From: Mogibacterium sp.
Lineage (GTDB): Bacteria > Bacillota > Clostridia > Peptostreptococcales > Anaerovoracaceae
Reading direction: 5' to 3'
Assembly: GCA_017404265.1 (NCBI GenBank)
Contig: JAFRCS010000006.1
Coordinates: 125,502-189,501, forward strand
Length of the DNA: 64,000 bases
Notes under the pieces: model-generated
Databases searched by the model: none
What the model saw: only the letters and a program-made list of their open reading frames with translations
Told to the model about the DNA's origin: nothing
Shown here: one piece after another, positions 15,087 to 27,493 of the stretch
Numbering within the stretch: position 1 is the first letter of the stretch
How the letters are laid out: each line of letters begins with the position of its first letter
Position numbers and translations under genes: made by a program

Positions 15087-15989
15087 ATGAAGGGAATAGT
15101 ACTTGCAGGAGGCGCCGGCACAAGGTTATATCCGCTCACGTTGGTGACATCGAAACAATTATTGCCGGTTTATGACAAGCCGATGATTTTCTATCCGCTG
15201 TCAACATTGATGCTTGCCAAGATCAGGGATATCCTGATTATCAGCACTCCGGAAGATACTCCGAGAATAGAAGAACTTCTGGGAGACGGCTCCAAGTTCG
15301 GAGTCAAGCTTTCATATGCTGTACAGGAAAAACCCGAAGGACTTGCCCAAGCATTTACTATAGGCCGTGAGTTTATAGGAGATGACTCCTGCGCGATGGT
15401 TCTTGGTGACAATATCTTCTATGGAAACGGACTTAACCATAAACTGATGGATGCCCGAAAAGATGCCGAGAAAGGGACCGCTACTATTTTTGGTTACTAC
15501 GTTCAGGATCCAAAGCGCTTTGGCATCATGGAATTCGAAAAGAGCACTGACAATGACCGGTCAGTTAAGGTCATCTCAGTCGAAGAGAAGCCTAAACAGC
15601 CAAAGAGCAACTACGCGATCGTTGGTCTGTATTTCTATCCTAAGGGCGTGAGCGACATGGCAGATAGGGTCACACCGTCCGCGCGCGGCGAGCTTGAGAT
15701 CACCACGCTCAACGACATGTATCTGCAACAGGGAAGACTGAACGCACAACTTCTTGGACGCGGCTATACCTGGATGGACGCTGGCACATTCGACAGTCTG
15801 CAGAAAGCCACTGACTTTGTCAGCATGATAGAGCAGTATCAAGGTATGACAATTTCTTCACCGGAGGAAATCGCGTATCACATGGGATGGATCGATGATG
15901 AGATGCTCGCAAAGAGTGTCAGACGTTACGGTAAGAGCCCATATGGTGAACGACTCAAAGCGGTACTCGAAGGAAAGGTCATAATCTAA
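15087..15989 (+). CDS. rfbA: Glucose-1-phosphate thymidylyltransferase
   Basis: MKGIVLAGGAGTRLYPLTLVTSKQLLPVYDKPMIFYPL..., GLAQAF, LGDNIFYG. The start is the ATG at 15087 after AAAGGAGG. The upstream part of the track ORF overlaps rbr and is spurious. Confidence 0.9.
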   Translation: MKGIVLAGGAGTRLYPLTLVTSKQLLPVYDKPMIFYPLSTLMLAKIRDILIISTPEDTPRIEELLGDGSKFGVKLSYAVQEKPEGLAQAFTIGREFIGDDSCAMVLGDNIFYGNGLNHKLMDARKDAEKGTATIFGYYVQDPKRFGIMEFEKSTDNDRSVKVISVEEKPKQPKSNYAIVGLYFYPKGVSDMADRVTPSARGELEITTLNDMYLQQGRLNAQLLGRGYTWMDAGTFDSLQKATDFVSMIEQYQGMTISSPEEIAYHMGWIDDEMLAKSVRRYGKSPYGERLKAVLEGKVII

Positions 15990-16127
15990 AATACAGATAA
16001 CAGCAGCCTGATCGATATAACTTTCTGCGAATCGTGGTTGCAATAATCTTACTGATAAAAACAAGGCAAAAGGACAGTCGCTGGATCAACAACCGGTCAG
16101 CGATGATATTTGTTGTGTGTCAACTAC

Positions 16128-16146
16128 CATTGTATTTAATACAATG
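16128..16146. promoter_or_regulatory. Perfect 9+1+9 palindrome upstream of the phosphonate operon (candidate operator)
   Basis: CATTGTATT-T-AATACAATG, located 39 nt upstream of the 16185 ATG. Confidence 0.3.
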
Positions 16147-16184
16147 ACAGACTCATATCCGAGTCAAAAACAGGAGGGTCGATA

Positions 16185-18194
16185 ATGAAAGCATTAATAC
16201 TCAATTCCGGACTTGGACATCGTATGGGAGTTCTTACATCTGAACAACCAAAGTGTATGACGGAGATCTCTGCAAGAGAAACTATCTTAAGCAGACAGCT
16301 GAGACTCCTTGCGGAAGCCGGGATCCAAAACGTTATCATGACCACCGGCTATTATGATTCGATTCTCGTAAATTACTGCAGGGAGTTGGATTATCCGCTC
16401 AACATCACTTTCGTGAACAATCCACTGTATGCAGAGACAAATTATATTTACTCGATATATTGTGCCAGGGAATATCTCGACGATGACATAGTTTTGATGC
16501 ACGGGGATGTAGTCTTTGAAGCTTCTGTACTTGATGACATCCTTGCTTTTGAAGGGAGCTGTATGAAAGTCAGCTCTACGACACCCCTTCCTGACAAAGA
16601 TTTCAAAGCTATAGTAAAGAACGGAATAGTCAAGGCGGTAGGGGTGGAGTATTTTGATTCCGCAATGGAAGCCCAGGCCCTATACAAATTGAACAAATCA
16701 GACTGGAAAATCTGGCTTGAAAAGATAACGGAGTACTGTGATGAAGGCAATACCGGCGTATATGCTGAGAACGCTCTTAATGAAGTGACCGATAGTTGTG
16801 TGATCCGCGCATACGATGTTCGCGAAAGGCTGTGCGCGGAAATCGATACACCGGAGGATCTTGCGGTAGTAAAGGCAAACCTTTCAGAGGTAGAGAACCG
16901 AATTGTTTATATGTGCTTCTCGACAGACATACTCCACAGTGGTCACATTGCCATAATCAAGAGAGCCTCGAAGTTGGGCAAGCTTGTTGTGGGCGTTCTC
17001 ACGGACGAAGTAATAGCGTCATACAAGAGATTTCCTTTGATTCCGTTTGAAGAAAGAAAAAGTCTATTTGAAAACATCAACTGTGTTGACAGAGTCATAG
17101 AGCAAGATACCCTGTCGTATTTAAAAGTTCTCAATGAACTGAGACCTGACTATGTAGTTCATGGAGATGACTGGCAGAGCGGATTTCAGAAGCCTATAAG
17201 AGACGAAGTCGTATCGGTCTTGGCTTCATATGGAGGAAAGTTGGTAGAATACCCGTACAACACGGATGATAAATATAAAGACATAGAATCAAGAACAAAA
17301 GCTGAATTAGCTATGCCTGACATAAGACGAGGAAGACTTCGGAGGATGCTTGAGACCAAAGGCTTAATAACCGCTATGGAAGCGCATGACGGCCTTACAG
17401 GACTGATAGTTGAGAATACAGTAGTCTATCAGCATGGTGAAGCAAGACAGTATGATGCCACTTGGGTCTCATCGCTTTGCGATTCGACAGCAAAAGGCAA
17501 GCCGGATATCGAGCTGGTCGATATGACTTCAAGATTCCGCACAATAGAAGACATCACCGAAGTGACCACTAAGCCTATCATTTTCGATGGAGACACCGGC
17601 GGCAAGACCGAACACTTTATATATACGGTAAGATCACTTGAAAGACTCGGAGTGTCTATGGTGATCATAGAAGACAAGACCGGTCTCAAAAAGAATTCAC
17701 TGTTTGGAACCGAGGTAAAACAGACTCAGGAATCGATCGAAAATTTCTGTGAGAAGATCAGGGCTGGCAAGAACGCTCAAAGAACAAAAGAATTCATGAT
17801 CTGCGCGAGGATAGAATCGCTTATCCTTGAAAGGGGTATGGACGATGCCCTCCAAAGAGCGTTTTCCTTCGTTGGCGCCGGAGCTGACGCTATCATGATA
17901 CATAGCCGAAAGAAAGATCCGGGTGAGATATTCGAGTTTATAGAGAAGTTCAGAGAAAAAGACAGATCAACGTATATCGTTCTGGTACCAACATCCTTCA
18001 ACTCAATTAAGGAAGAAGAGTGGAAAGAACGTGGTGCTAACATCGTTATTTATGCCAATCAGCTAATGCGGGCAACAGTTCCGGCTATTCAGGAAGCCGC
18101 AAAGACTATCCTTGAGTGTCATAGGGCAGAGGAATGCGACAGGATGCTGATGCCTTTCGAAGAGATCATAAGATTGATTCCTGCAGAAGAGTAG
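16185..18194 (+). CDS. ppm: Tri-domain fusion: LicC/PntC-like nucleotidyltransferase + HxGH cytidylyltransferase (TagD-like) + phosphoenolpyruvate phosphomutase
   Basis: aa 1-235: MKALILNSGLGHRMG (GxGxR NTP-transferase). aa ~236-375: IVYMCFSTDILHSGHIAIIKRASKLGKLVVGV (HxGH cytidylyltransferase fold). aa ~385-669: AMEAHDGLTGLIVE, WVSSLCDS, FDGDTGG, and the Ppm-specific EDKx5NS motif (IIEDKTGLKKNS, nt 17670..17699). Confidence 0.85.
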   Translation: MKALILNSGLGHRMGVLTSEQPKCMTEISARETILSRQLRLLAEAGIQNVIMTTGYYDSILVNYCRELDYPLNITFVNNPLYAETNYIYSIYCAREYLDDDIVLMHGDVVFEASVLDDILAFEGSCMKVSSTTPLPDKDFKAIVKNGIVKAVGVEYFDSAMEAQALYKLNKSDWKIWLEKITEYCDEGNTGVYAENALNEVTDSCVIRAYDVRERLCAEIDTPEDLAVVKANLSEVENRIVYMCFSTDILHSGHIAIIKRASKLGKLVVGVLTDEVIASYKRFPLIPFEERKSLFENINCVDRVIEQDTLSYLKVLNELRPDYVVHGDDWQSGFQKPIRDEVVSVLASYGGKLVEYPYNTDDKYKDIESRTKAELAMPDIRRGRLRRMLETKGLITAMEAHDGLTGLIVENTVVYQHGEARQYDATWVSSLCDSTAKGKPDIELVDMTSRFRTIEDITEVTTKPIIFDGDTGGKTEHFIYTVRSLERLGVSMVIIEDKTGLKKNSLFGTEVKQTQESIENFCEKIRAGKNAQRTKEFMICARIESLILERGMDDALQRAFSFVGAGADAIMIHSRKKDPGEIFEFIEKFREKDRSTYIVLVPTSFNSIKEEEWKERGANIVIYANQLMRATVPAIQEAAKTILECHRAEECDRMLMPFEEIIRLIPAEE

Positions 18195-18207
18195 TCCGGA
18201 GGGTCAA

Positions 18208-19170
18208 TTGATATACAGAGGCTTTGAAGAAAACAAAAGAATGCTCGAAGGGAAAAACCTGTTTTTGGTTTGCAGGGGCTCGTTTGACAGTCTTAAGATA
18301 GCGGGTTTTATCAAAGGCCTTGATTCATGTAGATTCAGCGGGTTTACTCCTAATCCGGGAAAAGAAGAAGTCATGGATGGAGTCGAGGCTTTTAAGGAAT
18401 CCGGATGTGACACCATACTCGCCGTCGGAGGAGGCAGTTCTATTGATGTAGCTAAATGCATAAAGCATTACAGCAAGTCTGAGGCACCTATCATCGCCAT
18501 ACCTACAACTGCAGGCACGGGAAGCGAGTCAACGCATTTTGCAGTTGTATATGAAAGCGGCAACAAGATTTCGGTCGCTGCTCCTGAACTTTTGCCGGAT
18601 ATAGTAATACTCGAGCCGTCAACGCTCCTCAGCGTTCCGGAGTATACACGCAAGGCCACTATGCTGGATGCTCTTTGCCACGCAATAGAATCGCATTGGG
18701 CAAAGAAAGCAACCAACGAGAGCCGGGAATACGCAGAAAAAGCGATAAAACTTATCCTTAAGGGTAAAGATGCCTATCTGGAAAATAAAGAAGAAGGCAA
18801 CGCCATTATGATGGATGCTGCTAATCTGGCAGGACAGGCGATCAACATATCGACCACAACTGCTGCCCATGCTATGTGCTATAAGATCACCGGCATGTAT
18901 GGATTCCAGCATGGCCATGCCGCCGCCATTTGCCTTCCTGAAGTATGGAAGCATATCGATGCTGCGCCGGGGATCACAATAGGAGAATTTAATGCTTTGC
19001 TTGAAGAACTCGGCATGGAGTATCCGGTGAGCGATGATGTTTCAAGAGATATAGAACGGCTGACCGACTCCGTAAATACACAAAGACTTTCTAACAATCC
19101 TGTCATTTTCAATAGAGAGCAGCTCGCAGTTATGTATGGAAATATAATCAGACAAAACAGGGACTGCTGA
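18208..19170 (+). CDS. Iron-containing (group III) alcohol dehydrogenase, candidate phosphonoacetaldehyde reductase
   Basis: GGGSSIDVAKC, LCHAIESHW, HAMCYKIT..FQHGHAAA (metal-binding His residues). TTG start at 18208, 4 nt after GGAGGG; an alternative ATG lies at 18241. At 320 aa it is shorter than the ~380 aa usual for this family. Confidence 0.7.
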   Translation: MIYRGFEENKRMLEGKNLFLVCRGSFDSLKIAGFIKGLDSCRFSGFTPNPGKEEVMDGVEAFKESGCDTILAVGGGSSIDVAKCIKHYSKSEAPIIAIPTTAGTGSESTHFAVVYESGNKISVAAPELLPDIVILEPSTLLSVPEYTRKATMLDALCHAIESHWAKKATNESREYAEKAIKLILKGKDAYLENKEEGNAIMMDAANLAGQAINISTTTAAHAMCYKITGMYGFQHGHAAAICLPEVWKHIDAAPGITIGEFNALLEELGMEYPVSDDVSRDIERLTDSVNTQRLSNNPVIFNREQLAVMYGNIIRQNRDC

Positions 19171-19198
19171 GCTGCTGAAACAGAAGACGGAGACGATA

Positions 19199-20317
19199 AT
19201 GAAAATAGAGACATTCGTAAAAATACTTGGTGCTGACTTTTATGCCGGCGTCCCTGATTCACAGCTGAAAGCCCTATGCAATTATCTTATAAACACATAT
19301 GGAACAGATGGCACACATCATATCATCGCTGCAAATGAGGGAAACTGTACTGCATTAGCAGCAGGCTACCATCTTGCAACGGGCAAGGTGCCTGTGGTTT
19401 ACATGCAGAATTCGGGCGAGGGCAACATAATCAATCCGGTCGCTTCATTGATGAATGACAAGGTCTACGGTATACCATGCATTTTCGTTGTTGGTTGGCG
19501 TGGTGAACCGGGCGTGAAGGATGAGCCTCAGCACAAATATCAGGGCGAAGTGACCATTAAGCTGCTTGAGGATATGGACATTTCCACCTATATAATAGGA
19601 GAACACACTACGGAAGAAGAACTCGAAGATGTGATGGAGGATTTCCGAGGCATGTTGGCTGCTGGCAAACAGGTAAGCTTCGTGGTTCGTAAGGGAGCTC
19701 TCGAATATGGAGGTGTCTCAAAGTACGCCAACGGCAATAAACTGATCAGAGAGGATGTTGTGCGCCATATAATCGATGTGACCGGCGATGATCCTATTGT
19801 TTCGACTACAGGAAAAACATCCAGAGAATTATTCGAGCTGCGAGTTTCACGCAACGAGACGCATGGACACGACTTTCTGACAGTTGGATCGATGGGACAC
19901 AGCTCATCGATCGCGCTTGGACTCGCAATGCAGAGGCCTGACAAAAAAGTCTGGATCATCGACGGTGATGGATCGATGCTGATGCACATGGGAAGCATGG
20001 CTCTTATAGGAGCCTATTTGCCAAAGAATATCGTGCACATCGTAATAAATAACAGCGCTCATGAAAGTGTAGGAGGGCAGCCTACGGTGGCCGGGCACAT
20101 GGATATAGCCAAAGTCGCAGAAGGTTGCGCTTATCCCAATGTAATTTCTGTAGATACACTTGAAAACCTTGATGCTGCACTTGAGGCTGCGAAAAGGAAA
20201 GATGAATTGACCTTCATAGAAGTAAAAAGCGCCATCGGAGCAAGAGACGATCTCGGAAGACCAACTACAAGTGCAAAAGAAAACAAGGAAAGCTTCATGA
20301 AAGAACTTATGAAATAA
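19199..20317 (+). CDS. ppd: Phosphonopyruvate decarboxylase (ThDP-dependent)
   Basis: Short (~370 aa) ThDP enzyme with YAGVPDSQL at the N-terminus and the ThDP motif IIDGDGSMLMHMGS...VINNSAHESVGG. It is adjacent to the PEP mutase, as in known phosphonate clusters. Confidence 0.85.
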   Translation: MKIETFVKILGADFYAGVPDSQLKALCNYLINTYGTDGTHHIIAANEGNCTALAAGYHLATGKVPVVYMQNSGEGNIINPVASLMNDKVYGIPCIFVVGWRGEPGVKDEPQHKYQGEVTIKLLEDMDISTYIIGEHTTEEELEDVMEDFRGMLAAGKQVSFVVRKGALEYGGVSKYANGNKLIREDVVRHIIDVTGDDPIVSTTGKTSRELFELRVSRNETHGHDFLTVGSMGHSSSIALGLAMQRPDKKVWIIDGDGSMLMHMGSMALIGAYLPKNIVHIVINNSAHESVGGQPTVAGHMDIAKVAEGCAYPNVISVDTLENLDAALEAAKRKDELTFIEVKSAIGARDDLGRPTTSAKENKESFMKELMK

Positions 20318-20328
20318 AGGAAACCATC

Positions 20329-21207
20329 ATGGAAGAAATGATACTTGTTAAAGACAAAAATGGCATTGAGTTTTATACTACTGAAAGCTATAGCATAGAA
20401 GACATCGAGAAGACCCAAAAGAAATCTGTCGAGATGATGTCTGTCATCGTTAATATTTTTGAAAAACATGGGATCGATTACATGATCGCACATGGTACGC
20501 TGCTTGGTCTGATAAGGCATAAAGGGTTTATTCCGTGGGACGATGACTGCGACCTGTTCGTCTTTGACTGGGATTATGCGCGGGCTATAGAGCTGCTGAG
20601 AAGAGAACTGCCTGACGATATGATCGTTCACAATCGAAGATCAGATCCGATATATTGGCCGGAATGGACAAAAATACGTGACCTTTACAGCGATACGTAT
20701 GAATCGCTTTGGGTAATAGACCGCAAATTCAAATATCACGGCATCTGCGTAGATATCCTGAAAGTCACGGTAGTGAACAAGTTCGAATACGAAAACGAAG
20801 AACAGATAGATATACTTAAAGACAGGCTAAAAGGAAGACAGAACAACAAGCATAAATATGCCGCGACACACTCTCTGTACAGATATTCAAAAAACATGGC
20901 AGGCATATTGATCGACAAAGGACGCCTTAACAAGCTGGAAAAAGAGAAAAAGCAGTCGACAAAAAAAGTCTGTATCGGCAACAAAGGAACGATTATAGAA
21001 TGTTTTTTTGATCTTGAGGATGCATTGCCGGTAAAAAAGATGGTCTTTGAAGGTGTCGAGGTGGCTGTTCCGAACAATCCGGATGGCGTACTGCATTCAA
21101 TGTACGGGGATTACATGAAAATGCCGGAGCTGAAAGACAGAAAACCTCATTTTGATAAAGTAATCTTTCTTGATAGAGAAGAAGAACACGGAAAACAGGA
21201 AAAATGA
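20329..21207 (+). CDS. licD: LicD-family phospho-headgroup transferase
   Basis: MIAHGTLLGLIRHKGFIPWDDDCDLFV (LicD DxD core). Size is typical (292 aa). Confidence 0.8.
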   Translation: MEEMILVKDKNGIEFYTTESYSIEDIEKTQKKSVEMMSVIVNIFEKHGIDYMIAHGTLLGLIRHKGFIPWDDDCDLFVFDWDYARAIELLRRELPDDMIVHNRRSDPIYWPEWTKIRDLYSDTYESLWVIDRKFKYHGICVDILKVTVVNKFEYENEEQIDILKDRLKGRQNNKHKYAATHSLYRYSKNMAGILIDKGRLNKLEKEKKQSTKKVCIGNKGTIIECFFDLEDALPVKKMVFEGVEVAVPNNPDGVLHSMYGDYMKMPELKDRKPHFDKVIFLDREEEHGKQEK

Positions 21208-23507
21208 CAGAAAAACCTAAGGTATCAGTCATATGTATCACATACGGGCATGAGGATCATATTGCGCAGGCTCTCGACAGTTTTCTGATGCAGAAAACGG
21301 AGTTTCCGTTTCAGATCTTAGTCGGAGAGGATAATGGCCCTGACAAAACTGCCGAGATCGTAAAGAACTATGCAGAAAAATACCCGGACAAGATCGTTCC
21401 TTTCATCCGCAAGGAGAGTATTGGAGCGCAAAGGAATCTGGTGGATCTGTGCAGGCGTGCGGAAACCGAGTACCTTGCATTTTGTGAGGGCGATGATTAC
21501 TGGATGGATGAATACAAACTACAAAAGCAATTCGATCTGATGGAAGCACATCCGGAGTATAATATGTGCTTTCATAACACCATGATAATGGCAGATCCAT
21601 CGTGGTATTTGTATGAATGCTATGACCGGGATGATAATGGCAGCATCGTCTTTCCAGGATCAATACCGGATTACGATACAACGCTTACCGAAATGAAGGC
21701 CGATAATTACATTAAGTACAGCCCGGCTCATTCATCATCAATGTTTTACAGATGGGATAACAGCAAGGAGATACCAGAGTGGTATTATACCCAAATATAC
21801 TGGGAACACTCACTGGTAATGATTCAGGTCGGGGACGGACTTATCGGTTATATTCCCGAAACGATGTCTGTCGGCGGGCTTTCAGAGGAAAGAGCGCCGG
21901 AGCATGAATCAAAGACAGATCTCTATATAAAAAGCCAGCAGAACCGGATAGAAATGGCCGTTGATATCGAGAGCTATTATTTAAGTCACTATGGTCTTTT
22001 TGCAAATTCAGAAATAAGAGACCGCATTGTCCACGAATTCAACGATTATATTCAATACATTATAAATACTGAGAATGATGATCTGTTAAGAGAAGCATAT
22101 ATAAAATATGCATATCCAGCCAGTCTGGCAATAGAAGCAAATTTAAGAAACCAATCAACTATCAATAAGTTAAAAAGTCTTTACTCTGAAAATGGCTTCC
22201 AAATGCTTATAACAGATAGTGACGTAAAAGAGGGGGTTTCAAAATTAATCGATAAAAGAAAAATCAAAAAGAAAGAAAAAATAAAAGAAAACATAAGAAA
22301 ACGATTAAACGCATATGTTAAAGATAACAAAGCGATCGAAGACAAAAAACTATGGGTCTTCAGTTATGATAACCAGTGGTACTATAGCGGAAATGTAAGG
22401 CATCTGTACGAATACATTCTGGCATATCACCCTGAAATCAGCGCTGTCTGGATCACAAGAAGCATAACGCTGACCAAACTGTTTGATTCTGAAGGAAAGC
22501 CATATGCAAAGATAGGAAGCGAAGAATGTAAGCATGTTTTGGAAAAGGCAGCGGTTGCTTTTGTCAACAACTACAAAATACTATCATTTGGTATAGAAGG
22601 GATCAATAAGAACACTAAGATCGTCCGGCTTGGAGACGGGATCCGGCCAGAAGGAAAAGAAAGGTTCAATGCATATCAGAGGGACCTGAGAACAGTTCCT
22701 TTTATTACAGCAGAAGAGATCATCAGTAAGCATCCGGAGAATTATGATAAAGAAATGCTCACGGAAGAAACACGAAGCTATTTCACAGAGGATTATCCAA
22801 ACACATTCCTTCAACTTGCAGAAAATGACAGGATGCTGCGGTTTTATAATGAAGTAATGGGTATTCCCGAGGAGGCGATCATAAAGTGCGTATCGCCAAG
22901 GTGCTTTGCTGTCAGGGAAAAACCGAAAGAAACAAATAACGTGATCGCTCTGTGTCCCGGCTTCAGAGCAAGGGTGTCAGATCAAATAGAATACGCGGAC
23001 GCTTTATTAAAAAATATTGACAGCATCAATGCTTTTCTTGAAAAAGAGGACTGCTTCCTCAGGATCATGATCCCTAACGACTATTATCATGAAGTAAGAG
23101 AAAAATTGCAGAAAGGAACAGACCGGTTCCCAAGAATGGAAGTCAGCGAGCCGGCAGAAGATCTGTTCTCCGAACTGATCAATATCGATGCAATGATAAC
23201 GGACTGGTCATCAGCAATGTTTGACTTTGCATTACAGAATAAGCCGGTCGTTTTATTGAATCCGGATAAGATTGAACAGGATGTCCCTGGCGGTATGCTG
23301 TATAAACTTGACGAAGTCGCGCCGGGGGCAAAGGCAGATGACTGGGAAGAGGCTCTGAATATGATTCTGGAAAGAATGAATGATCCGGATATTGACAGCG
23401 ATAAGAGAAGAAAAACTGTGGAAACAATTTATGATACAGCTGTCAATGGTGATAAGGATCTCGAATGTATCGTTACAGAGATAAAGCAGCGCCTTGACAT
23501 CCAATAA
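21204..23507 (+). CDS. Fusion of GT2 glycosyltransferase (N-terminal) and TagF-like CDP-glycerol glycerophosphotransferase (C-terminal)
   Basis: N-terminus: KVSVICITYGHEDHIAQALDSFL...VGEDNGPDKT...CEGDDYW (GT-A fold, DxD). C-terminus: ALCPGFRA... and ITDWSSAMFDFALQNKPVVLL (TagF family). The start overlaps the licD stop (ATGA). Confidence 0.75.
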   Translation: MTEKPKVSVICITYGHEDHIAQALDSFLMQKTEFPFQILVGEDNGPDKTAEIVKNYAEKYPDKIVPFIRKESIGAQRNLVDLCRRAETEYLAFCEGDDYWMDEYKLQKQFDLMEAHPEYNMCFHNTMIMADPSWYLYECYDRDDNGSIVFPGSIPDYDTTLTEMKADNYIKYSPAHSSSMFYRWDNSKEIPEWYYTQIYWEHSLVMIQVGDGLIGYIPETMSVGGLSEERAPEHESKTDLYIKSQQNRIEMAVDIESYYLSHYGLFANSEIRDRIVHEFNDYIQYIINTENDDLLREAYIKYAYPASLAIEANLRNQSTINKLKSLYSENGFQMLITDSDVKEGVSKLIDKRKIKKKEKIKENIRKRLNAYVKDNKAIEDKKLWVFSYDNQWYYSGNVRHLYEYILAYHPEISAVWITRSITLTKLFDSEGKPYAKIGSEECKHVLEKAAVAFVNNYKILSFGIEGINKNTKIVRLGDGIRPEGKERFNAYQRDLRTVPFITAEEIISKHPENYDKEMLTEETRSYFTEDYPNTFLQLAENDRMLRFYNEVMGIPEEAIIKCVSPRCFAVREKPKETNNVIALCPGFRARVSDQIEYADALLKNIDSINAFLEKEDCFLRIMIPNDYYHEVREKLQKGTDRFPRMEVSEPAEDLFSELINIDAMITDWSSAMFDFALQNKPVVLLNPDKIEQDVPGGMLYKLDEVAPGAKADDWEEALNMILERMNDPDIDSDKRRKTVETIYDTAVNGDKDLECIVTEIKQRLDIQ

Positions 23508-23534
23508 AACTAAGCAGAAATATACAATAAGAAA

Positions 23535-23570
23535 CCTCCCGCAGTGTAATCATACACGCGGGAGGCTTTT
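23535..23570. terminator. Rho-independent terminator between convergent operons
   Basis: Stem cctcccgc/gcgggagg, 15-nt loop, TTTT. It lies between 21204..23507 (+) and licB-like (-). Confidence 0.55.
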
Positions 23571-23604
23571 CTATTGCTATTAATCACTAATACATAAAAC
23601 GCGT

Positions 23605-24549
23605 TTATTTCTCTTCCTTGCTGAATAGCTCTTTGTAGTCCGCGCCTGAAAGAATACCAAACACCAGGACTCCGATCGTACACAGAATAGTGATCGGATT
23701 CAGCAGAGCGTAATTCTTGAAGAATACTACCGCGATTATTACGGCCCAGGCGGAATATGTGATATTCAAAGCCATGGACTTGGACGCTCCGATTTGCGAA
23801 ATAGCTCTGTAGTAGAAGAGATATGATACTGTTGCGCTAAGAGCGGCAATAGCAATCGTTGGGATCAGCATTCCGGTTCCGCTGAAGAGGCTTATCGTGA
23901 AGCCCCATCCTTTCAGCAGAGGGAGAAGTATCAGTCCATATACGAGCGCCGAAGTGGTCTGACGGATCTGAAGAGCAAGGTCGTCTGTGACCAGCGGATC
24001 CTGAACACACTTCGCGATGATGACAGCTTCGATACCCCAGCCGAATGAGCACATGAGAGCACCGAGTACGCCCAGCCAGAAATTCTTGATGCTGAGGTCA
24101 GGTGAATAGCTCAGACCATATACTCCAAGCAGAGTAAGGATCAGGAAAACCCAACGATACCAGCGCATTTCCTCTTTGAGGAAATAATGCGCTATTACTG
24201 CGCCTATAGCAGGGAACATCGCTGTCGATACCGCGCCAATGGAAGCGCCCATGTTAGCAACCGCCATTACATAGCCGGTCATGCCGATCGGGCCGCCGAT
24301 GACTGCCGCCAGAGCAACAAACTTGCCGCTTCTGGTCTTGAACGCCCTTACCAGATCCGGAAGCCTACCCCTGAAACCGTTATACGCGCATGCCCATATC
24401 GCGGAAAAAGCGTCGTGGATAAAAGTTGATACGAAAGGAGCTAAAAAGATTGCCTGTTCCGTCGATACAAAAGGTGTCATAGCAAGCGCGATACCAATGA
24501 TCGTCGTTTCTATTCCCCAGGTTAGACCTGCCATTATTCCTGCAAACAT
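23605..24549 (-). CDS. licB: DMT-superfamily transporter, LicB-like (putative choline permease)
   Basis: About 10 predicted TM helices. Segments resemble my recollection of pneumococcal LicB: FIHDAFS, GGPIGMTGYVMAV, MFPAIG, WGIEAV, QIRQTTSAL, SYLFYYRAI, LNITYSAWAVIIAVVF. It lies directly downstream of a choline-kinase gene. Confidence 0.65.
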   Translation of the reverse strand: MFAGIMAGLTWGIETTIIGIALAMTPFVSTEQAIFLAPFVSTFIHDAFSAIWACAYNGFRGRLPDLVRAFKTRSGKFVALAAVIGGPIGMTGYVMAVANMGASIGAVSTAMFPAIGAVIAHYFLKEEMRWYRWVFLILTLLGVYGLSYSPDLSIKNFWLGVLGALMCSFGWGIEAVIIAKCVQDPLVTDDLALQIRQTTSALVYGLILLPLLKGWGFTISLFSGTGMLIPTIAIAALSATVSYLFYYRAISQIGASKSMALNITYSAWAVIIAVVFFKNYALLNPITILCTIGVLVFGILSGADYKELFSKEEK

Positions 24550-24567
24550 TATTTACCTCCTTTTACA

Positions 24568-25482
24568 CTAACCAAGCTTTTTATAAGCTTCGATATTGTT
24601 CTTGAGTCTCAGATATCTTCCGTCCGCGTATTCTTGCATGAAATCGCCGTCAAACGGAACGCGGGTAAGACCCCACAGAGTCCACAGATAATCAACATAG
24701 AGCTTTGCTGCTATGAAATACTTCTTCTCTTCAAGGGATGGCTCTCTCTGATAGTAATCCAGAAGGAGTTCCGCTTCCTGCTCTTCGTTATAACCGATCT
24801 CTATGGAAAGGCAGGAAAGATCCCACATAGCCTCGTTCATGCCGGAATACTCCCAGTCGATCAGATACAGCTTGCCGTTCTTATCAAGAACCCAGTTGCC
24901 GATTAGGGAATCGTTATGGCATGGTACGCGAGGGATAGGTCCGTTGGCGTCAACAGATGCCTTGATATCCATGACAGTCTGCTTAACTTCATCATAGTCA
25001 TCATAGAAAGCAACTCCGCCGTCACGAATGATCTTTTCATACAGGTCAGCCATTTCGAAAACTTCAAATTTAACTCCTGTGTCTACTCCGCAGGTGTGCA
25101 GCTTACGGAAGATGTCCGCTGCCTGTTTGATATTTTCACTTCTGCACATTACCTCTTCGGTCATAGGCTGCGGGTCATCAATAAAACGCATGACCTTACG
25201 TCCATCATCTCCAAAATACAAAAGTTCGGAATCTATACCCAGACTGCAGGCAAGCTCCGTGCTCTTTCTCTCGTCATCTCTGACGATCATCTCCTCGGTG
25301 CCTTCTCCCGGGATCCTTACAAGATACTCGTTTCCGTCCGCGCGGGTAACCCTGTAAGAATGATTAGTCATTCCACCAAGACGGCAGATATCGACGTACT
25401 CATCATCCTCAAAAACGGAACCAAGCAACGCTTTGACCTTAGGAAGGTCAGAATCTTCAATTTCTCTGATTAATTCAGCCAT
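24568..25482 (-). CDS. licA: Choline/ethanolamine kinase (LicA-like, APH fold)
   Basis: GMTNHSYRV, Brenner motif CHNDSLIGNW, and the choline-kinase motif LIDWEYSGMNEAMWDL. Confidence 0.8.
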   Translation of the reverse strand: MAELIREIEDSDLPKVKALLGSVFEDDEYVDICRLGGMTNHSYRVTRADGNEYLVRIPGEGTEEMIVRDDERKSTELACSLGIDSELLYFGDDGRKVMRFIDDPQPMTEEVMCRSENIKQAADIFRKLHTCGVDTGVKFEVFEMADLYEKIIRDGGVAFYDDYDEVKQTVMDIKASVDANGPIPRVPCHNDSLIGNWVLDKNGKLYLIDWEYSGMNEAMWDLSCLSIEIGYNEEQEAELLLDYYQREPSLEEKKYFIAAKLYVDYLWTLWGLTRVPFDGDFMQEYADGRYLRLKNNIEAYKKLG

Positions 25483-25564
25483 TATATCCTCCTTGTTATT
25501 ATTTGAAAGACCTGATCATACAGCATTCTTTTACGAATCTGATGGCTTGCCTATCAAATATGTT

Positions 25565-25593
25565 TTTACACGGTGTTCATATTACCATATAAT
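25565..25593 (+). promoter_or_regulatory. Putative sigma-A promoter for the 25727 gene
   Basis: TTTACA (25565..25570), 17-nt spacer, TATAAT (25588..25593). Confidence 0.5.
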
Positions 25594-25611
25594 CATATCA
25601 AAAATGAACAC
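25573..25611. promoter_or_regulatory. Candidate operator 1: inverted repeat GTGTTCAT-N23-ATGAACAC bracketing the -10 box
   Basis: Perfect 8-nt arms at 25573..25580 and 25604..25611, enclosing TATAAT. Confidence 0.4.
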
Positions 25612-25661
25612 TTTTTTTAATACAATACATATTTATTCATAGAAACCACAGTCGTTGCGCC

Positions 25662-25700
25662 TTGTTCATTTTTATGCTATTATTCCCACTGTTTGAACAA
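25662..25700. promoter_or_regulatory. Candidate operator 2: TTGTTCAT-N23-TTGAACAA, same 39-bp geometry as operator 1
   Basis: TGTTCA/TGAACA cores with the same 25-nt separation as in operator 1, located 27 nt upstream of the 25727 ATG. Confidence 0.4.
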
Positions 25701-25726
25701 AGATAACTTCCAAAAAGGAGACCGAA

Positions 25727-27493
25727 ATGACCAGAAATGAGTTTAATCTGCTTTACGCAATTAAGAAGTACGGAATACAGAGCTACAGAAAAATGAAAGA
25801 TATGGCCTTTGTTTCAGTTGGATATGTGTCTCAGACAATGAAATCCTTCTCTGAACAGAACTATATCGACGATAACGGCATAACAGAACTTGGGATGCAG
25901 GCGCTGCTGCCGTACAAAGTCGATTCAGCGGTTATCATGGCGGCGGGAATGTCCACCCGCTTTGTTCCGCTTTCCCTGGAGAAGCCGAAGGGCTTGCTTG
26001 AAGTTAAGGGCGAGGTACTTATTGAGCGCCAGATAAAACAACTGAAAGAGGCAGGCATAGAGAATATAGCCATCGTTCTGGGATACAAGAAAGAAGCGTT
26101 TTTTTATCTTGAGGATAAATACGATGGCATCAAAATAATCATCAATCCGGAATATAATACCAAAAACAACACACATACTTTGTATTTGGCTCAAAACTGC
26201 ATTAAGAACACTTATATTTGCTCCTCTGACGACTACTTCGTAGAAAATCCTTTTGAGGAGTATGTATATCAGTCATATTACGCGGCCATTCACGTAAAAG
26301 AAAAAACCAATGAATGGTATATGATCCCGGACAAGAAGGGCAACATATCCAAGGTAAGACTCTGCGGAGAAGAAGGCGATATAATGCTGGGCCATGTGTA
26401 CTGGGACAGAGAGTTCAGCGCCGCAATGTTGGGAATACTCAACGCGGATCATGAAATAGGCAATTACGATCAGTCGCTTTGGGAGCAGATTCTGATGGAG
26501 AATGTCAAAGAGCTGCCTCCAATGGAGATAAAGGTCTATCCGGACGATGTCATCTTCGAATTCGATTCACTTGATGATCTCCGTAAGTTCGATGCCAGTT
26601 ATATCAACAATACTCACAGCAGGATAATGAAGAATATCACTTCCTGCCTGAATTGTAATGAAGAGGATATTCTCAACCTTAAACCGATCAAGGAAGGAAT
26701 AACCAATACATCATTCGCCTTTGAGGTCAACAGGAAAAAGTATGTCTACAGGCATCCGGGCGAGGGGACAGAAGCTTTTATTTCACGCAAAGATGAAAAG
26801 AAAGCTCTGGAGCTTGCCAAACTTATAGGGGCTGATCCTACATTTATATATATGGATGACAACGAAGGATGGAAACTCTCAGAATATGTTGAAGAGAAAA
26901 GAGCACCTGATTATGGATCGGCAGATGATTCGAAAAGAGTCATTGGAGTAATGAAGACGCTGCATCAGCACGAGCTTCCTGACGGAAGAACCTTCAGCCC
27001 ATGGGAAGAAACGGGAAAACTGGAAGAACTTCTGCGCTCAGAGAAAGGCGGCATTGCCGATAAAGAATTCGATCAGCTTAAAGCCGATGTCGAAAAATGC
27101 TATAAGAAAACGATCGGAGACGGGGTAGAGACAAGGTTCTGTCACTGCGATACTTACGCGCAGAACTGGATGCTCACAGACAAAGGAGAGACGATACTGA
27201 TCGACTGGGAGTACGCGGGCAACGCCGATCCGGGCTGTGATCTGGGAGCATATATCATGGATTCCATGTGGGATATTCCGGACGCGGAGGCATTCATCAA
27301 AGAGTATTGCGGGAGTGAATATAATGATACTCTCAGATTCCATTATTTGGCATATACGGCAATCCTGTCATATTACTGGTATGTGTGGGCGCTCTACCGT
27401 GAGGCAAGAGGAGCGATAATGGGAGAGAGCCTTTATAACTGGCGCGTTATGGCAAGACGCTATAGTAAATACCTGTTAGAAAAATACAAATAA
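25727..27493 (+). CDS. Fusion: small N-terminal wHTH-like domain + LicC-like (choline-phosphate) cytidylyltransferase + LicA-like kinase
   Basis: aa 1-60: helix-rich, MarR-like (weak call). aa ~65-300: AVIMAAGMSTRFVPLSLEKPKGLLEV (LicC-type NTP transferase). aa ~310-588: GITNTSFAF, CHCDTYAQNW, LIDWEYAGNADPGCDL (choline kinase). Confidence 0.8.
   Translation: MTRNEFNLLYAIKKYGIQSYRKMKDMAFVSVGYVSQTMKSFSEQNYIDDNGITELGMQALLPYKVDSAVIMAAGMSTRFVPLSLEKPKGLLEVKGEVLIERQIKQLKEAGIENIAIVLGYKKEAFFYLEDKYDGIKIIINPEYNTKNNTHTLYLAQNCIKNTYICSSDDYFVENPFEEYVYQSYYAAIHVKEKTNEWYMIPDKKGNISKVRLCGEEGDIMLGHVYWDREFSAAMLGILNADHEIGNYDQSLWEQILMENVKELPPMEIKVYPDDVIFEFDSLDDLRKFDASYINNTHSRIMKNITSCLNCNEEDILNLKPIKEGITNTSFAFEVNRKKYVYRHPGEGTEAFISRKDEKKALELAKLIGADPTFIYMDDNEGWKLSEYVEEKRAPDYGSADDSKRVIGVMKTLHQHELPDGRTFSPWEETGKLEELLRSEKGGIADKEFDQLKADVEKCYKKTIGDGVETRFCHCDTYAQNWMLTDKGETILIDWEYAGNADPGCDLGAYIMDSMWDIPDAEAFIKEYCGSEYNDTLRFHYLAYTAILSYYWYVWALYREARGAIMGESLYNWRVMARRYSKYLLEKYK

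Follow-up and report, generated by a model that had tools for sequence, protein, structure and literature searches.

A Triple-Fusion Phosphoenolpyruvate Mutase with a Fom1-Type Middle Domain Probably Heads a Hydroxyethylphosphonate Cassette in Mogibacterium

Within a 64,000-nucleotide stretch of Mogibacterium sp. DNA (contig JAFRCS010000006.1 of assembly GCA_017404265.1; "the window" below means this whole stretch), one gene joins two nucleotidyltransferase (NTase) domains of different folds to a phosphoenolpyruvate (PEP) mutase. With PF12804, PF01467, and PF13714 on one polypeptide, its product belongs to the triple-fusion class of PEP mutase (Ppm) proteins of Rice et al. (2019, Nat Commun 10:3698; PMC6697681). 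Our analyses make it probable that the gene heads a three-gene cassette for 2-hydroxyethylphosphonate (HEP) and that both NTases are intact, the middle one being a cytidylyltransferase (CyTase) of the Fom1 type and the N-terminal one (hereafter the N-domain) an HEP-specific enzyme of the LicC fold. Phosphonate surface decorations are widespread in gut, rumen, and oral anaerobes and chemically almost uncharacterized; the triple-fusion family is the apparent entry point of the main HEP route in these organisms, and the recognition of a Fom1-like, not TagD-like, middle domain sets right the pathway predicted for this teichoic-acid locus.

Results

Three Domains on One Polypeptide

The gene is a single open reading frame (ORF) of 669 codons free of stops and frameshifts, as a preliminary description of this DNA had stated, and NCBI, ENA, and Logan together have the identical protein on 10 contigs. 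Full-length relatives (65–86% identity) are also encoded by at least 281 species-representative genomes, which rules out a sequencing or assembly artifact. The three domains and their order, likewise proposed earlier, are agreed on by Pfam, an AlphaFold2 model, and Foldseek: NTP_transf_3 matches at amino acids (aa) 3–120 (E 1.8e-8; aa 2–120 together with NTP_transferase, PF00483), CTP_transf_like at aa 248–343 (5.8e-15), and PEP_mutase at aa 386–643 (1.9e-51), and the gathering scores are all passed (PF12804, 35.2 vs. 27 bits; PF01467, 56.1 vs. 21; PF13714, 175.4 vs. 31.5). The AlphaFold2 model, built with 38 relatives as input, has three folded domains (mean predicted local distance difference test, 86.3; predicted template modeling [TM] score, 0.77), its low-confidence parts being just two flexible loops, both within the mutase domain. 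Folds were compared by Foldseek searches of this model against the Protein Data Bank (PDB), with each domain matching separately.

The C-terminal domain is a PEP mutase, predicted to convert PEP to phosphonopyruvate. It scores 395.7 bits against the equivalog model TIGR02320 (cutoff 319.55) and resembles mollusc and Streptomyces PEP mutases in fold (TM 0.75–0.78; 1S2U and 1S2W are among the matches, 1S2U at 0.75). The EDKxxxxxNS motif, which separates Ppm from its isocitrate-lyase relatives (Rice 2019, PMC6697681), is present as E496-D-K-T-G-L-K-K-N-S505; D497 and N504 are invariant in the 38 relatives, and the other motif positions are conserved in at least 90%. In the same alignment, the two NTase domains are equally conserved, each averaging 66% identity to the query with 32–33% of columns invariant, and the catalytic motifs of both are all kept; on these grounds, we read both domains as probably active.

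A Fom1-Type Middle Domain

The middle domain carries the motif FSTDILHSGHIAIIKRA at aa 245–261 and, more specifically, H251xG253H254 (H251-S-G-H254), S-Y-K281-R282, H326-G-D-D-W330, and P357-Y358; among relatives, little or no variation is seen at H251xGH254, K281, R282, R291, H326-G-D-x-W330, and Y358. Against PDB sequences, aa 230–385 match the CyTase of Fom1 best (5X3D; E 2.2e-39, 137.6 bits, about 58% identity over 124 residues), with weaker matches to ethanolamine-phosphate cytidylyltransferase (ECT; 3.7e-13) and TagD (1COZ; 1.8e-10), and the fold superimposes on HEP-CMP-bound 5X3D with a TM score of 0.94 and a root-mean-square deviation of 1.1 Å. The Fom1 CyTase converts HEP and CTP to HEP-CMP (PMC6697681; PMC9088020). 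The kinship of the middle domain with the Fom1 enzyme is of orthologue grade, and the domain is predicted to make CMP-HEP from CTP and HEP. In Fom1 of Streptomyces wedmorensis, too, an HxGH CyTase with S-Y-K-R and H-G-D-D-W stands ahead of a PEP mutase, and its partners in the fosfomycin pathway are likewise a phosphonopyruvate decarboxylase (Ppd) and an Fe-dependent alcohol dehydrogenase (Fe-ADH) making HEP. Fom1, however, has no LicC-fold domain, and in antibiotic synthesis its CMP-HEP serves a radical-SAM methylase as a transient handle, whereas the genes around the present fusion (LicD, TagF-like, and glycosyltransferase) are those of a surface polymer.

The preliminary description had instead likened the HxGH domain to TagD, a glycerol-3-phosphate cytidylyltransferase (GCT), and suggested that it supplies CDP-glycerol to seven TagF-like domains of the window. 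Much of the groundwork for that suggestion holds: the middle segment has the HxGH fold class and matches PF01467, it is the only PF01467 domain of the contig stretch, there are indeed seven Glyphos_transf stretches, and the match to 1COZ, although weak, exists. The suggestion itself fails on several counts, and we regard it as very improbable. The TagD equivalog TIGR01518 gives only 49.1 bits to the whole protein and 52.7 bits to aa 236–375, against a cutoff of 165.4, and the Fom1 CyTase is far closer than 1COZ. The C-terminal RTxGISTT-type motif (R-T-x-x-I-S) is the CTP-binding motif of the GCT family; it is missing from the middle domain, where Y-P-Y-N-T-D-D-K aligns with L-P-R-T-P-E-I-S-S of the genome's own TagD, and (Y/I)-P-Y-(N/S/T) replaces it in all Ppm-associated CyTases aligned and in Fom1. 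A search of the genome found a genuine stand-alone tagD on another contig (C8, 154871–155245; 202.7–203.7 bits to TIGR01518), and 50 of 73 loci with the same domain have no TagF-like gene within the retrieved flanks. Given a genuine tagD and a Fom1-type middle domain, the seven TagF-like stretches appear to be independent of this domain for CDP-glycerol.

That tagD (L113:8872-9246, minus strand) is the genome's only genuine one. It is an orphan outside any teichoic-acid cluster and not on the contig of the TagF-like domains, with an unannotated 303-aa gene on one side and mscS/PAP2 genes on the other.

An HEP-Linked Subfamily of the LicC Fold

The N-domain shares its fold with LicC of Streptococcus pneumoniae (1JYK; TM 0.82) and with the 2-aminoethylphosphonate (AEP)-specific PntC proteins (Tde1415/Ari1348), and with them the GxG(T/S)Rx4-8PK loop, here G9-L-G-H-R13...P22-K23 with His at the T/S position, the Mg-binding Asp (D108), and a genomic association with Ppm and LicD. 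In sequence, the similarity is weak (1JYK, E 1.3e-10; Tde-PntC 6PD1, 5.6e-7). The motifs G9xG11xR13...P22K23, T85-N-Y, H106-G-D108, K138-D-F-K141, Y193-A-E195, and E219xD221 mark a subfamily whose signature residues are conserved in 118–129 of 129 aligned rows; H106 and D108 are invariant, R13 stands in all rows that are not gapped at its position, and 126 rows keep K23.

When this subfamily is aligned with PntC-like proteins of AEP loci and with the window's own LicC, the substrate pocket differs. His106 (129 of 129 rows) occupies the column of Tde-PntC Glu104 and LicC Asp105, the residues that contact the substrate amine (Rice 2019, PMC6697681); K138-D-F-K141 stands where AEP-type PntC and LicC carry D-D/E-W, and T-N-Y-I-Y where the AEP-locus proteins and LicC carry x-N-N-I-S. 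With the acidic amine contact replaced by His106, we count the N-domain as PntC-like in fold but as neither an AEP-PntC nor a LicC, and such a pocket would suit a neutral hydroxyl substrate better than a cationic one.

Gene fusions point the same way. A profile-free search with aa 1–235 against 1.84 billion cluster representatives gave 207 matches below 1e-30, and the architectures of the best 150 were read: 75 are stand-alone N-domains of about 240 aa, about 46 are N::Fe-ADH proteins (four of these also with LicD), about 5 pair the N-domain with a CyTase (N::CyTase, N::CyTase::Ppm, or N::CyTase::Fe-ADH), 3 are other N-only rows with an unexplained tail or a duplicated N-domain, and 22 are fragments; among the Atlas clusters, a single N::CyTase::Fe-ADH cluster has 478 members. 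Repeated fusion to an HEP-making Fe-ADH and to the presumed transferase LicD is Rosetta-stone evidence that the N-domain handles HEP. Most likely, it is the HEP-specific counterpart of the AEP-specific PntC, associated with Fe-ADH instead of an AEP transaminase and feeding LicD. This distinct HEP-linked LicC-like subfamily, with its invariant His and its frequent fusion to Fe-ADH or LicD, is new here, and the database name of its stand-alone members, "phosphocholine cytidylyltransferase family protein," is probably a misnomer.

At one locus (L093:234-5764), a 912-aa N::Fe-ADH::LicD triple fusion is convergent with the gene of a 931-aa Stealth-family protein (hexose-1-phosphoryltransferase family), a possible further route for attaching HEP-bearing units.

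A Conserved Cassette Predicted to Make HEP

The genes that follow the fusion (Table 1) suggest a short pathway. The C-terminal mutase would turn PEP into phosphonopyruvate, the downstream Ppd would decarboxylate this to phosphonoacetaldehyde, and the adjacent Fe-ADH would reduce the latter to HEP; joined to CMP, HEP would become CMP-HEP, from which LicD and/or the operon's TagF-like enzymes would attach it to a glycan of the wall or of teichoic type. Given the reactions known for Ppm, Ppd, and reductases of the PhpC/FomC type, the cassette should make HEP (Li 2022, PMC8942020; reviewed in PMC9088020). The glycosyltransferase family 2 (GT2)::TagF-like protein encoded next likely builds the decorated polymer or makes its acceptor.

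The core of this arrangement is conserved. In 74 related loci whose fusion ORF is full-length, an orthologous Fe-ADH (67 of 74) and Ppd (64 of 74) directly follow the fusion, their order being swapped in Bacteroidales. The other neighbors belong to surface-polysaccharide synthesis and vary from locus to locus (GT2, GT4, Wzx-type flippases, epimerases, and DegT). Within the retrieved flanks of 73 related loci, a LicD-family ORF is found in 29 and a TagF-like gene in 23. Aminotran_5 is absent among the annotated representatives of the recurrent neighbor-gene clusters.

An alternative put forward earlier was that each of the two transferases activates a phosphonate of its own. For AEP plus HEP in this genome, we rule this out, because no AEP transaminase was found in it (best match 50.7 bits, cutoff 360.8) and its single Ppm is the fusion itself; what remains likely of the idea is some division of labor between the domains.

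Two Transferases That Travel Together

Co-occurrence was counted in 399 Clostridia genomes, 19 of which carry the N-domain (E below 1e-50); 18 of the 19 have a Fom1-like CyTase either in that very ORF or no more than about 3 kb away. Related genomes in these counts are nonindependent observations, and the HEP and AEP signature samples described below are small. Five arrangements (Cy, CyTase) were seen: N::Cy::Ppm; N beside Cy::Ppm, in the gene order of the fusion and abutting or overlapping it; N::Fe-ADH plus Cy::Ppm; N::Cy::Fe-ADH; and N::Fe-ADH::LicD. The abutting or overlapping genes in fusion order suggest that the triple fusion arose by loss of a stop codon. A second new finding is that, irrespective of how the genes are fused, the N-domain is almost always accompanied by a Fom1-signature CyTase, and because the two co-occur in nearly every such arrangement, they are probably nonredundant.

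Nine Cy::Ppm loci in the same genomes have no N-domain of this subfamily; none of the nine has an Fe-ADH, and three have a distant LicC-like PntC. Five Cy::Ppm modules adjoin an Aminotran_5 AEP-type transaminase (four Pfam-confirmed), four of them among these nine loci and the fifth beside a triple fusion. By these counts, the N-domain subfamily and Fe-ADH go one-to-one in this sample, and the Ppm-borne CyTase is common to AEP and HEP loci. One locus (L103, G319:C49:23000-42900) holds two phosphonate modules about 5 kb apart, one with a triple fusion and Fe-ADH (HEP) and one with an Aminotran_5 transaminase, Cy::Ppm, and Ppd (AEP).

The CyTases of the two kinds of loci also differ in sequence. 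With the bit score to 5X3D as a proxy for their placement relative to Fom1, HEP-locus CyTases with the Fom1 signature (S-Y-K-R, H-G-D-D-W) reach 137.6, 151.8, 167.5, and 146.4 bits, whereas four AEP-locus CyTases, with Y-N-K/R and H-G-D-N-W, reach 94–99 bits; the signature is defined from a small sample of five HEP and four AEP loci with one outlier. In a tree of the Cy and Ppm domains, the AEP and other loci form one clade together with an HEP locus, L104 (support 100/99), and the triple fusions form another (99/98), which has a split form as sister and contains one further split form; row L087, an ORF picked in error, is disregarded. A strict rule that the CyTase clade gives the end product fits four of five HEP and four of four AEP loci and is rejected, being broken by L104. 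Most telling, where Ppm bears an AEP-type CyTase, two of the three HEP branches seen carry their own HEP-signature CyTase within an N::Cy::Fe-ADH protein, L104 being the exception.

These N::Cy::Fe-ADH proteins (L114:4912-11256, and L111 and L102 of genome G070) are 740–751 aa long and have a Fom1-signature CyTase, and the Ppm of the same locus or genome bears an AEP-signature one; in L114, no Ppd lies within 9 kb. At another HEP locus (L089:8001-12817), a 172-aa gene resembling adenylylsulfate kinase and two class-I methyltransferase genes lie between N::Fe-ADH and Cy::Ppm. These recall the logic of the Campylobacter O-methyl-phosphoramidate, which uses a 3'-phosphorylated CDP donor.

Discussion

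Our reading of the gene as the head of an HEP cassette with two intact, HEP-linked transferases has to be set against several observations that do not sit easily with it. The Fe-ADH of the window has Phn_Fe-ADH (TIGR03405) as its second-best NCBIfam match, at 137 bits below the cutoff of 423.7, and a LicD or TagF-like gene, one of which would use the activated phosphonate, is found in only 44 of the 73 loci within the retrieved flanks. The pairing has exceptions: one metagenome-assembled genome (MAG; G147, 78% complete) has an N-domain without CyTase, Ppm, or Fe-ADH within 10 kb, and in Ruminococcus albus 8 about 50 kb separate the stand-alone gene of the N-domain from that of Cy-Ppm. The HEP locus L104 has a CyTase of the AEP clade, at 85 bits to 5X3D. 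All substrate assignments, as opposed to the domains, motifs, and gene associations that we observed directly, come from homology, fusion, and neighborhood. Moreover, if both domains made the same CMP-HEP, their obligate pairing would be left unexplained.

This last point leaves the sharpened question of why HEP activation uses two different NTases, and AEP clusters pose it as well, two NTases per cluster being present there without explanation (Rice 2019, PMC6697681; Li 2022, PMC8942020). The pairing may reflect different substrates, nucleotides, or downstream transferases, and here the transferases in question could be LicD and the TagF-like domain, given their translational coupling. We tentatively offer, as one possibility among others, that HEP decoration needs two nonredundant activations, with the LicC-fold domain forming a new HEP-specific PntC subfamily and the Fom1-type domain doing a chemically distinct job with a substrate, nucleotide, or acceptor route of its own. 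If so, the triple fusion would be a two-activator machine, and the same logic would explain the two NTases of AEP clusters. A more general division of labor, in which the two transferases act on different molecules or nucleoside triphosphates and the decoration needs two activated intermediates, seems to us rather doubtful in its specifics: the Fom1-type domain might make CMP-HEP, for instance, and the LicC-fold domain activate phosphonoacetaldehyde or an HEP-bearing sugar- or polyol-phosphate or make a noncytidine conjugate. The pairing across five fusion arrangements with few exceptions, the retention of an HEP-type CyTase even beside a Ppm already bearing another, the strong remodeling of the N-domain pocket, including two invariant Lys residues, and the paired NTases of AEP clusters would all be accounted for. 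On the other side, the conserved core is Ppm, Ppd, and Fe-ADH only, with no second small-molecule product evident, the signatures of both domains track HEP, and the N::Fe-ADH::LicD fusions agree with simple HEP activation.

Two other readings fare worse. If one transferase domain were a noncatalytic relic serving folding, oligomerization, or regulation, an otherwise puzzling redundancy would disappear; ECT provides a parallel in its tandem cytidylyltransferase domains with one inactive copy, and the middle domain does lack the GCT-type motif. The active Fom1 lacks it as well, however, and a middle domain with so high an identity to Fom1 and nearly invariant catalytic residues gives no support to a relic there, while the N-domain keeps GxGxR...PK, the Mg-binding Asp108, and E219/D221; with both domains equally conserved, we consider a relic improbable. 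Nor does the N-domain seem to be an ordinary LicC phosphocholine cytidylyltransferase serving the adjoining choline module, an idea suggested by its relatives' database name, by 1JYK as the best PDB sequence match, and by choline uptake and kinase genes at 23605–27493. The window already has a LicC::LicA fusion at 25727–27493, beside LicB and LicA, the N-domain lacks the acidic and Trp positions common to LicC and AEP-PntC, and in the sampled genomes, members of the subfamily go with loci of Fe-ADH and Ppm rather than with lic genes, all of which makes a LicC role highly unlikely. The paired, HEP-linked transferases of the triple fusion remain our preferred reading.

The architecture is not rare and is common among bacteria of the gut and rumen. 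It had been called unusual, which is an overstatement: among Ppm proteins, 33% are fused to PF12804 and 23.6% to PF01467, and both domains occur together in 42 triple-fusion proteins, 2.8–2.9% of the total (Rice 2019, PMC6697681, Fig. 2b legend); the architecture is now known from hundreds of species. The gene is a further member of this catalogued class, which, in our literature search, was uncharacterized in Rice 2019 (PMC6697681), Li 2022 (PMC8942020), and elsewhere; a search for CMP-HEP transferases or later work on triple fusions gave nothing beyond these two papers. As the architecture has been on record since 2019, the surprise for specialists is modest. The known triple fusions share with ours the three Pfam domains and the EDKxxxxxNS motif but were counted there only as a class, with no substrate, context, or function given; what the present analysis adds is the cassette for HEP, the signature of the N-domain, and the rule of pairing.

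Distribution and Gene Features

A word-indexed search for relatives of the whole fusion gave at least 8,000 candidates, of which the best 120 were examined. Almost all are 668–700 aa long (one has 656 aa), nearly all have the same three Pfam domains, and the source databases name them "phosphoenolpyruvate mutase." Among the listed matches, the closest is from Mogibacterium (86%), and the carriers include Lachnospiraceae, Oscillospiraceae, Ruminococcus flavefaciens 007c, Butyrivibrio, Selenomonadales, some Bacteroidales, and one Gastranaerophilales MAG; cultured carriers are R. flavefaciens 007c, Butyrivibrio sp. DSM 10294, Selenomonas caprae mPRGC8, and Anaerovibrio slackiae, among others. The N-domain subfamily occurs in 26 of the 399 sampled Clostridia genomes and in none of 15 sampled genomes of the same family or order; it was also found in none of 300 other sampled Bacteroidales genomes, so that a replication of the co-occurrence count there lacked carriers. 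The GC content is 0.41–0.48 over 12–24 kb of the window (0.41–0.47 in the phosphonate module at 16–24 kb) vs. 0.49–0.56 at 4–12 kb upstream. The lower GC content and the patchy taxonomy suggest horizontal acquisition of the phosphonate module and its spread among gut and rumen bacteria.

Table 1. Coordinates in the window of the triple-fusion gene, its domains, and the genes downstream
Feature	Position	Strand	Basis or remark
Triple-fusion gene, 669 aa	16185..18194	+	ATG start, internal stops = 0; stop at 18192-18194
Ribosome-binding site AGGAGG	16172..16177	+	Read from sequence, 7 nt 5' of ATG
LicC/PntC-fold NTP-transferase, HEP-linked subfamily, aa 1-235	16185..16889	+	Pfam, PDB sequence matches, fold
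Fom1-type HxGH cytidylyltransferase, aa 236-378	16890..17318	+	PF01467, 5X3D match, fold
PEP mutase, aa 379-669	17319..18191	+	TIGR02320, PF13714, EDKxxxxxNS motif, fold
Fe-dependent alcohol dehydrogenase, 320 aa, predicted phosphonoacetaldehyde reductase making 2-HEP	18208..19170	+	Pfam Fe-ADH, ADH_Fe_C
Phosphonopyruvate decarboxylase (Ppd)	19199..20317	+	TIGR03297, 456.4 bits vs. 312.5 cutoff
LicD-family phosphotransferase, predicted CMP-HEP user	20329..21207	+	Pfam LicD, 9.3e-33
GT2::TagF-like fusion	21204..23507	+	Pfam Glycos_transf_2 + Glyphos_transf; start overlaps licD stop

A scan of 15900–23800 for promoters and terminators gave nothing exceeding shuffled expectation; upstream of the gene, a 19-bp palindrome at 16128–16146 overlaps a weak promoter-like match, GTGTCA-17-TACAAT (16117–16145), from the same scan. 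The Fe-ADH of the window is shorter than its more than 60 orthologues (320 vs. about 372 aa) through two loop deletions, with the cofactor and metal motifs kept; the deletions are common to the Mogibacterium relative (L009, 329 aa), and GGGS, TTAGTGSE, DAxxHAIES, and HGHA are intact.

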